From positions 1 to 40,702 of the IMG/VR virus record IMGVR_UViG_2923350032_000005: a stretch of DNA of 40,702 nt; one strand, 5' to 3'. Each line of letters begins with the position of its first letter. The first letter of the stretch is position 1. Shown in pieces: positions 22,525 through 23,037 of the stretch. Both the position numbers and the translations under genes were made by a program. Source of the DNA: a virus. Taxonomy: Duplodnaviria > Heunggongvirae > Uroviricota > Caudoviricetes. The notes below the pieces were generated by a model. That model saw only the letters and a program-made list of their open reading frames with translations, searched no databases and was not told the origin of the DNA.

Positions 22525-22875
22525 TCACTTTAACCGTTCACGGGCCGTCTTCGCCTTATGACACGGCCAGCACAGACTCTGCAGATTACTGTCAGCATCA
22601 GTGCCGCCATGCGCTTTAGGGATGATGTGGTCAACAGTTTTCGCCTCACGCACCACACCAGAACGCAGACATAACTGACACAGGCCTTTGTCACGCTTCA
22701 GGACACGCGCGCGGATACTGTCCCACTTCGAACCGTAGCCGCGCTGATGACGGGATTGTCCAGGTTTGTATTGCTTCCAGCCTTCGCTTTTGTGGCTTTC
22801 GCAATAGCCTGACGGGTCAGTGGTGGTATGGCGGCAGCCGCGAACACGGCAGGCTTTTGGGGTTCGTTGCGGAAT
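22525..22875 (-). CDS. HNH endonuclease (packaging-associated), with no canonical start codon in frame
   Basis: My own translation: IPQRTPKACRVRGCRHTTTDPSGYCESHKSEGWKQYKPGQSRHQRGYGSKWDSIRARVLKRDKGLCQLCLRSGVVREAKTVDHIIPKAHGGTDADSNLQSLCWPCHKAKTARERLK. It has Cys4 and DHIIP...N...CH HNH motifs. The frame opens after a TAA; AGGAGG at 22882-22887 precedes an ATT at 22875. Absent from the ORF track. Confidence 0.7.
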   Translation of the reverse strand: MPQRTPKACRVRGCRHTTTDPSGYCESHKSEGWKQYKPGQSRHQRGYGSKWDSIRARVLKRDKGLCQLCLRSGVVREAKTVDHIIPKAHGGTDADSNLQSLCWPCHKAKTARERLK

Positions 22876-23037
22876 GTTATTCCTCCTGTGTAATTACTGA
22901 TTCCATTAATGTAATGTAATATATTGTATTGTAAGAAAAAATTGTTTTTTTACAGTGATATATTTTTATAGAAGACTATTCGCTCAAGGTGCATTAAGAT
23001 TAATCTCACCCCCACGAAGAATGTTAAGGATAAGAAG

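Follow-up and report, generated by a model that had tools for sequence, protein, structure and literature searches.

An HNH endonuclease gene beside the terminase genes of an Escherichia coli prophage has ATT at the family start position, a candidate AUU initiator behind a strong Shine-Dalgarno sequence

Only two E. coli genes have been experimentally confirmed to be initiated at AUU, infC, encoding IF3, and pcnB, encoding poly(A) polymerase I, and in E. coli reporters AUU initiates at about 1–2% of the level of AUG (bioRxiv 10.1101/063800). IF3 inhibits non-canonical starts (PMC2268962) and discriminates against non-canonical initiation complexes (PMC5499595). Among phage HNH endonucleases, a CxxxxC...CxxH pattern is characteristic of the group-1 zinc-ribbon enzymes (PMC3592412), and HK97 GP74 stimulates cleavage by TerL at cos and is needed for packaging (PMC9410871, citing Kala et al. 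2014).

Here we describe an HNH gene in a stretch of 40,702 nucleotides, which we call the window. As in infC and pcnB, an AUU occupies the initiator position after a Shine-Dalgarno (SD) sequence; the codon aligns with the N-terminus of homologs, and the SD lies at functional spacing from it. The low output and IF3 sensitivity of infC and pcnB would be expected for the HNH gene as well. Orthologs of infC share its AUU, a conservation that defines cases of this type and points to selection for the rare codon, and in infC the AUU is part of an autoregulatory loop. The AUU of the HNH gene is instead confined to one recent sublineage. On these features we regard the gene as an unverified candidate for an AUU-initiated gene of the infC/pcnB kind.

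Among the closest described HNH proteins, HK97 gp74 and the crystallised homolog from Geobacillus virus E2 (PDB 5H0M) resemble the window protein in size (~116–130 aa) and in combining a zinc ribbon with an HNH motif, and their genes likewise lie directly upstream of cos, terS and TerL in phages with HK97-type head genes. Unlike the window gene, both have a canonical start codon, and the sequence similarity between the window protein and 5H0M is moderate (E=4.4e-12). Orthologs are found in Shigella phage SfV (orf53, NP_599085), in SfI, SfII, SfIV and ST64B, and in Escherichia phage SKA5. They are 116 aa long, occupy the same place relative to cos and terS, and share ~93–97% protein identity with the window protein, as counted by eye from the sequences. 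In contrast to the window gene, each ortholog begins at an ATG behind a less strong SD, as with ACAGGAATATATTT-ATG in SfV, and these phages are without the AT-rich island and the orphan ORF found in the window.

The original prediction had given no strand for the HNH frame; reading the window sequence places its coding strand on the minus strand, with the following parts.

22525–22875, minus strand: HNH endonuclease coding frame, 116 codons from ATT plus a TGA stop (22527–22525); from translation, Pfam, PHROG and alignment to 5H0M
22873–22875, minus strand: ATT at the orthologous start position, the putative AUU initiator; from alignment to relatives
22882–22887, minus strand: Shine-Dalgarno AGGAGG, followed by the 6-nt spacer AATAAC (22876–22881); from sequence and duplex energy
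22894–22896, minus strand: in-frame TAA that closes the HNH frame 6 codons 5´ of the ATT; from sequence
22792–22851, minus strand: N-terminal zinc ribbon (C9, C14, C25, H28); from translation, aligns with 5H0M, and lost if the internal GTG is used
22558–22680, minus strand: HNH catalytic core (C66, C69, D82-H83, N97, C102, C105, H106); from PF01844, residues 66–112
22525–22656, minus strand: 43-aa GTG-started fragment without C66 and C69, the sole piece of the gene in the ORF track; from the ORF list

Read along the minus strand, the order is TAA, TTA CAC AGG AGG AAT AAC ATT CCG CAA CGA ACC CCA AAA GCC TGC. No ATG, GTG or TTG occurs in frame between the TAA and the first cysteine, and the first canonical in-frame start is the GTG at 22656 (codon 74), which is why a mechanical ORF list yields only the 43-aa fragment. 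The description in the original prediction was accurate on each of these points: the frame opens after a TAA and has no conventional start before its motifs, AGGAGG (22887–22882) lies six nt upstream of the ATT (22875–22873), and the gene is missed by an ORF track that allows only ATG, GTG and TTG. A start further upstream in frame is impossible given the TAA 6 codons away, and use of the GTG at 22656 would give a 43-aa product without the zinc ribbon and without C66/C69. The ATT with its strong SD is the only plausible initiation site of the frame. As a string, AGGAGG-N6-ATT is unremarkable; it occurs once in the 40.7-kb window, at least one match arises in 28 of 100 shuffles, which is not significant alone, and AGGAGG itself is not enriched in the window. 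Its meaning is positional, because it falls exactly at the codon that aligns with the start codon of the relatives.

The protein encoded from the ATT is, as predicted, a complete HNH protein, with a zinc ribbon and a full HNH core in the 116-codon frame. The Pfam HNH domain PF01844 matches residues 66–112 (E=1.1e-16), PHROG 144 (HNH endonuclease) matches at 4e-45, and 5H0M aligns over residues 2–114 (E=4.4e-12), with residue 2 opposite residue 2. The beta-beta-alpha-metal motif with its catalytic His and Asn is present, as are two CxxC pairs of zinc ligands. By these matches the protein is a clear member of the terminase-associated HNH family (HK97 gp74 type), and by analogy it would act in cos cleavage by TerL and in packaging. 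The predicted position just upstream of the terminase genes was likewise correct, with terS (Terminase_4) and TerL directly downstream of the HNH gene, the probable cos adjoining it, and HK97-type portal, protease and capsid genes annotated in near-identical prophages.

22449–22498, no strand: probable cos region, between HNH and terS; from an inverted repeat and the end of the SfV record
21905–22399, minus strand: small terminase subunit terS (P27 family); from Pfam Terminase_4 and a RefSeq CDS of 495 nt
20175–21908, minus strand: large terminase subunit TerL; from Pfam TerL_ATPase and TerL_nuclease

We place cos at 22467|22466 because the linear SfV record ends there; the point is flanked by the inverted repeat GGGGCGGG (22498–22491) / CCCGCCCC (22456–22449), and the SfI, SfIV and ST64B records end near it. 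The region is probably cos. For terS, the ORF list gives GTG 22408 as the start, whereas RefSeq homologs begin at ATG 22399, which follows an AGGAG. Translation more likely begins at this ATG, as annotated by PGAP.

DNA homologous to the window HNH gene is present in 1215 of 5426 complete E. coli genomes. Because the upstream sequence is mosaic, most of these genomes match the window only from a point a few bases away from the ATT codon. The relatives that we used from IMG/VR and RefSeq span about 60 different upstream sequences, and in all 81 that have upstream sequences other than that of the window the aligned codon is ATG and the ORF has 116 codons. The isolated phages SfV and SKA5 also have ATG at this position. 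In IMG/VR, where at least 594 relatives were counted, pattern scans at the start position gave at least 120 cases of ATG, and for ATA, ATC or ATT only three contigs among the matches listed, all three with the upstream module of the window. GTG was seen with a single upstream module (AATCAAGGTAATAAA), which has a weak SD and occurs in eight IMG/VR contigs (L093–L096, L098 and L100–L102), and a possible CTG in one contig, L099, that is cut 12 nt upstream. Which start codon is present thus depends on the upstream module that accompanies the gene.

ATG, found in more than 99% of relatives, is evidently the ancestral state. The ATG alignments, together with the match at residue 2 of 5H0M, give the family an N-terminus of Met-Pro-x-Arg..., with ATT in place of the Met codon in the window. 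Since homologs carry ATG at this point in the alignment, the ATT must be a substitution derived within one lineage. It had been proposed that an ATG in homologs would point to a mutation here. That part is borne out, yet use of the ATT as a weak start appears probable from the sequence.

All copies of the ATT share one upstream module, which includes the following two features.

~22890–23560, no strand: AT-rich island, the upstream module linked to the ATT; GC 30–39%, against about 56% in HNH
23038–23376, plus strand: orphan 112-aa ORF in the island, on the strand opposite to the late operon; a hypothetical protein in RefSeq

The module CACAGGAGGAATAAC is present in 11 complete E. coli genomes and three IMG/VR contigs, with ATT in every copy and ATG in none. 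The match from a metagenome scan was to the same contig as one of these (L085), an exact-pattern scan of GTDB representatives gave no match, and the module was not found among the isolated phages of the GenBank phage collection. A 565-nt stretch of the island occurs in only 11 of the 5426 E. coli genomes, always beside the ATT allele. Island and orphan ORF were found only in these 11 genomes and the same three IMG/VR contigs, with no match in GTDB species representatives or other IMG/VR contigs, which makes ATT allele and island one module of single origin. By this comparison the ATT is a derived, single-origin allele that is always linked to one upstream module. The orphan ORF, which lies between the lysis cassette and HNH, had no match in Pfam, PHROG or phage records and is moron-like.

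The gene has also been shuffled internally. There are five distinct ATT coding alleles, and every difference among them lies 3´ of nt 138 and matches ATG-type alleles, which indicates recombination within HNH; the first 137 nt are identical across all ATT carriers. The module (island, SD, ATT and first ~137 nt) has evidently recombined onto at least three different 3´ parts of the gene. The identity of the first 137 nt marks the allele as young, and purifying selection on the ATT lineage, having had little time to act, is therefore unmeasurable; dN/dS is uninformative because the variation among carriers was imported by recombination from ATG alleles.

The SD of the ATT module is exceptionally strong. 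Its duplex with the 16S 3´ end, at -10.3 kcal/mol, ranks second among 62 distinct upstream modules, for which the median is about -5.7, and this rank (about 2/62) is a single observation. SDs are weak, at -0.7 to -4 kcal/mol, in many of the ATG relatives and in the GTG module. That most relatives have weak SDs suggests that the family normally needs little HNH protein, and the strength of the SD in the ATT module suggests that it offsets part of the ATT penalty. In thermodynamic models of ribosome binding sites, ~4.5 kcal/mol of additional SD pairing corresponds, roughly, to a several-fold effect. By this rough estimate, output from the ATT allele would lie near the low end of the natural range, not far outside it. 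Around the ATT start, predicted mRNA structure did not exceed chance (z=-0.33), and a scan of 22300–23700 for promoters and terminators gave counts at the level of shuffled sequence.

The last ~45 nt of the ATT-module leader weakly resemble the family leader CCATxACxATGG...CGTAAT...AAGGAG...ATG, and this resemblance suggests that the ATT may have arisen by a G-to-T point change and not at an insertion junction. In most relatives (for example, L003, L005 and L168), an intrinsic-terminator-like GGGCGGTTTTTT lies directly 5´ of the conserved HNH leader (CCATxACxATGG...CGTAAT...); members of the ATT lineage have the AT-rich island where that terminator region would be. A further feature of the leader varies among carriers.

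22907–22920, no strand: ATTAC pentanucleotide repeat (minus strand ATTACATTACATTA) in the HNH leader; from comparison of carriers, 1 to 3 copies

One copy is present in AF46, BE2-5 and L084–L086, two in the window, Eco_23-2667 and FDAARGOS_1337, and three in GF8 and Ceylon31. The repeat is possibly a slippage hotspot in a divergent intergenic or promoter region.

We favor, at a probability of roughly 0.6, the reading that an ancestral ATG became ATT in one lineage and that HNH is still translated weakly from AUU, the protein being needed in small amounts. In this model, the late operon would be transcribed through the lysis genes under a Q-like antiterminator, across the island and into HNH-cos-terS-TerL; the window ORF at 25741–26493 is the counterpart of a gene annotated as an antitermination protein in near-identical prophages. 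On the mRNA, AGGAGG would anchor the 30S subunit, and fMet-tRNA would pair weakly with AUU through a third-position mismatch, a pairing that the perfect AGGAGG, the 6-nt spacing and the unstructured AT-rich leader would aid. IF3 would be expected to discriminate against the AUU initiation complex, so that HNH output should be low and probably condition-sensitive. The resulting Met-Pro-Gln... protein would assist TerL in cutting cos, as HK97 GP74 does. Given that the family appears to need little protein, the reduced output may be enough to assist the terminase at the adjacent cos.

The strongest competitor, which we consider possible but clearly the less likely, is that loss of the start inactivated the gene, or left it strongly hypomorphic, in a decaying prophage. 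The frame would then be intact only because the mutation is recent, and recombination and helper packaging would account for its spread. An ancestral ATG fits this explanation, as does the youth and rarity of the ATT allele, which is carried by 11 of the 1215 E. coli genomes with this HNH DNA (~0.9%). So do the absence of the module from the cultured phages of the GenBank collection and the possibility that HNH from a co-infecting phage could allow a single round of packaging of a recombinant whose own allele is dead. Several ATT carriers also have lesions elsewhere, namely partial Rz, tail-fibre and pinE genes, a baseplate frameshift and a large deletion, the last in E. coli BE2-5 (L091, NZ_CP032986.1). 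There the deletion removes terminase, head and tail genes and fuses codon 77 of HNH to a baseplate assembly gene (locus 1581–2240); PGAP annotates the 660-nt fusion CDS from the same ATT. BE2-5 is, however, the one exception. In 13 of 14 independent ATT copies (the window and 12 of 13 others) the HNH ORF is intact, with no second lesion, and the window and GF8 prophages have full-length structural genes.

The distribution of the module also argues against a dead gene. It is found in at least four mosaic prophages, at two attachment sites, with differing integrases, immunity genes and head genes. One carrier prophage lies at prfC and differs in integrase, head module and immunity region from the rest, which lie at thrW-proA and represent two or more immunity types. 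In seven carriers the host flanks (frsA-proA) differ by up to 2.3%, and at least five host-flank backgrounds are represented, whereas the module is 98.4–99.8% identical among carriers. Repeated lysogenisation after the ATT arose fits this contrast better than vertical descent. Moreover, four carriers contain related HNH DNA only once, which leaves no other copy for complementation in trans, and the SD is near the top of the family. RefSeq/PGAP, for its part, annotates a 351-nt HNH endonuclease CDS from this ATT (WP_024188390.1, WP_024256831.1), as checked directly in five carriers (L001, L087, L088, L089 and L090); annotation of the ATT start is thus not new. Taken together, the intact spread across mosaic prophages and hosts, the exceptional SD and the RefSeq annotation favor continued use of a non-canonical start over simple gene death.

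True pseudogenes of HNH do exist, a further point for start loss, and one surfaced when the truncated 43-aa product was looked up to find start-less alleles. In three NCBI assemblies (GCA_000713015.1, GCA_000713335.1 and GCA_000713025.1; L231–L233, locus positions 1282–1632), an ATG-type allele carries the nonsense change Q67* (CAG to TAA), which splits the gene into calls of 66 aa and 43 aa. By its sequence this allele is a genuine HNH pseudogene in other prophages.

It is conceivable, though we think it improbable, that the combination of AUU and a perfect SD is more than a tolerated mutation and serves adaptively to set HNH dosage, with expression tied to IF3 level, ppGpp and temperature. 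Such a combination may have evolved as a counterweight to the very strong SD, or to promoter activity that came with the AT-rich island. Were this so, the gene would represent a third natural AUU class in E. coli, and phage DNA-packaging modules would have their first example.

Very unlikely, in our view, is an explanation by termination and reinitiation, which involves a short ORF that contains the SD.

22877–22906, minus strand: 9-codon mini-ORF, ATG GAA TCA GTA ATT ACA CAG GAG GAA TAA, in another frame, ending 1 nt before the ATT

Ribosomes would finish this mini-ORF, from its ATG at 22906 to the TAA at 22877, and would then resume at the AUU under less strict codon selection. The arrangement matches classical translational coupling, since the upstream ORF contains the HNH SD and stops 1 nt away from the codon at which translation would resume, and the mini-ORF is present in all ATT carriers. 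Yet these carriers are too similar for its conservation to be informative, the mini-ORF has no SD of its own, and so short an ORF is expected by chance in AT-rich DNA. In E. coli, moreover, IF3 and initiator tRNA take part in reinitiation too, and IF3 inhibits it (PMC2268962). Any role of the mini-ORF is speculative. A prfB-like +1 frameshift from the mini-ORF was also considered and rejected, as re-pairing of GAA on AAU is not possible and the P-site codon and the SD overlap.

That the ATT is a sequencing or assembly error for a real ATG has prior plausibility only in its favor and can be dismissed, because the identical ATT recurs in 11 independent complete genomes and three IMG/VR contigs, produced by different laboratories on different platforms. 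Among the explanations that the original prediction put forward, three in all, error thus falls away (ATT in 14 further assemblies or contigs), and mutation and non-canonical initiation each appear true in part.

The locus is a natural AUU candidate that would be easy to test, and the phenotype of the gene, in cos cleavage and phage yield, is a clear one. That a weak codon and a strong SD occur together in nature adds modest interest. Natural isogenic comparators are available in hundreds of ATG alleles, whose SDs are graded in strength, and in one GTG module, through which the locus could show how far SD strength offsets start-codon weakness in vivo. If the ATT allele is instead dead, it shows a defective module still spreading among prophages. 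The gene also illustrates how ORF finders limited to ATG, GTG and TTG drop an essential-looking packaging gene, which PGAP rescues by homology.

Several observations concern the prophage as a whole. The window is about 99% identical to the GF8 prophage over most of its length and represents a prophage of the SfV/ST64B/e14 kind that has head genes of HK97 type and is inserted at thrW-proA. Positions 3416–5167 are inverted relative to the GF8 prophage and lie beside a gene for a Pin-like resolvase/invertase (2798–3388), and this stretch is evidently an invertible tail-fibre segment in the opposite orientation. At the tail-fibre end of the prophage, where an AraC-family regulator and an IS fragment lie nearby, an ORF on the plus strand (1913–2737) encodes a LEM-3-like GIY-YIG nuclease domain, and a BRCT-domain ORF on the minus strand (33099–34019) lies beside the repressor gene. 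These two ORFs may be accessory or defence cargo.
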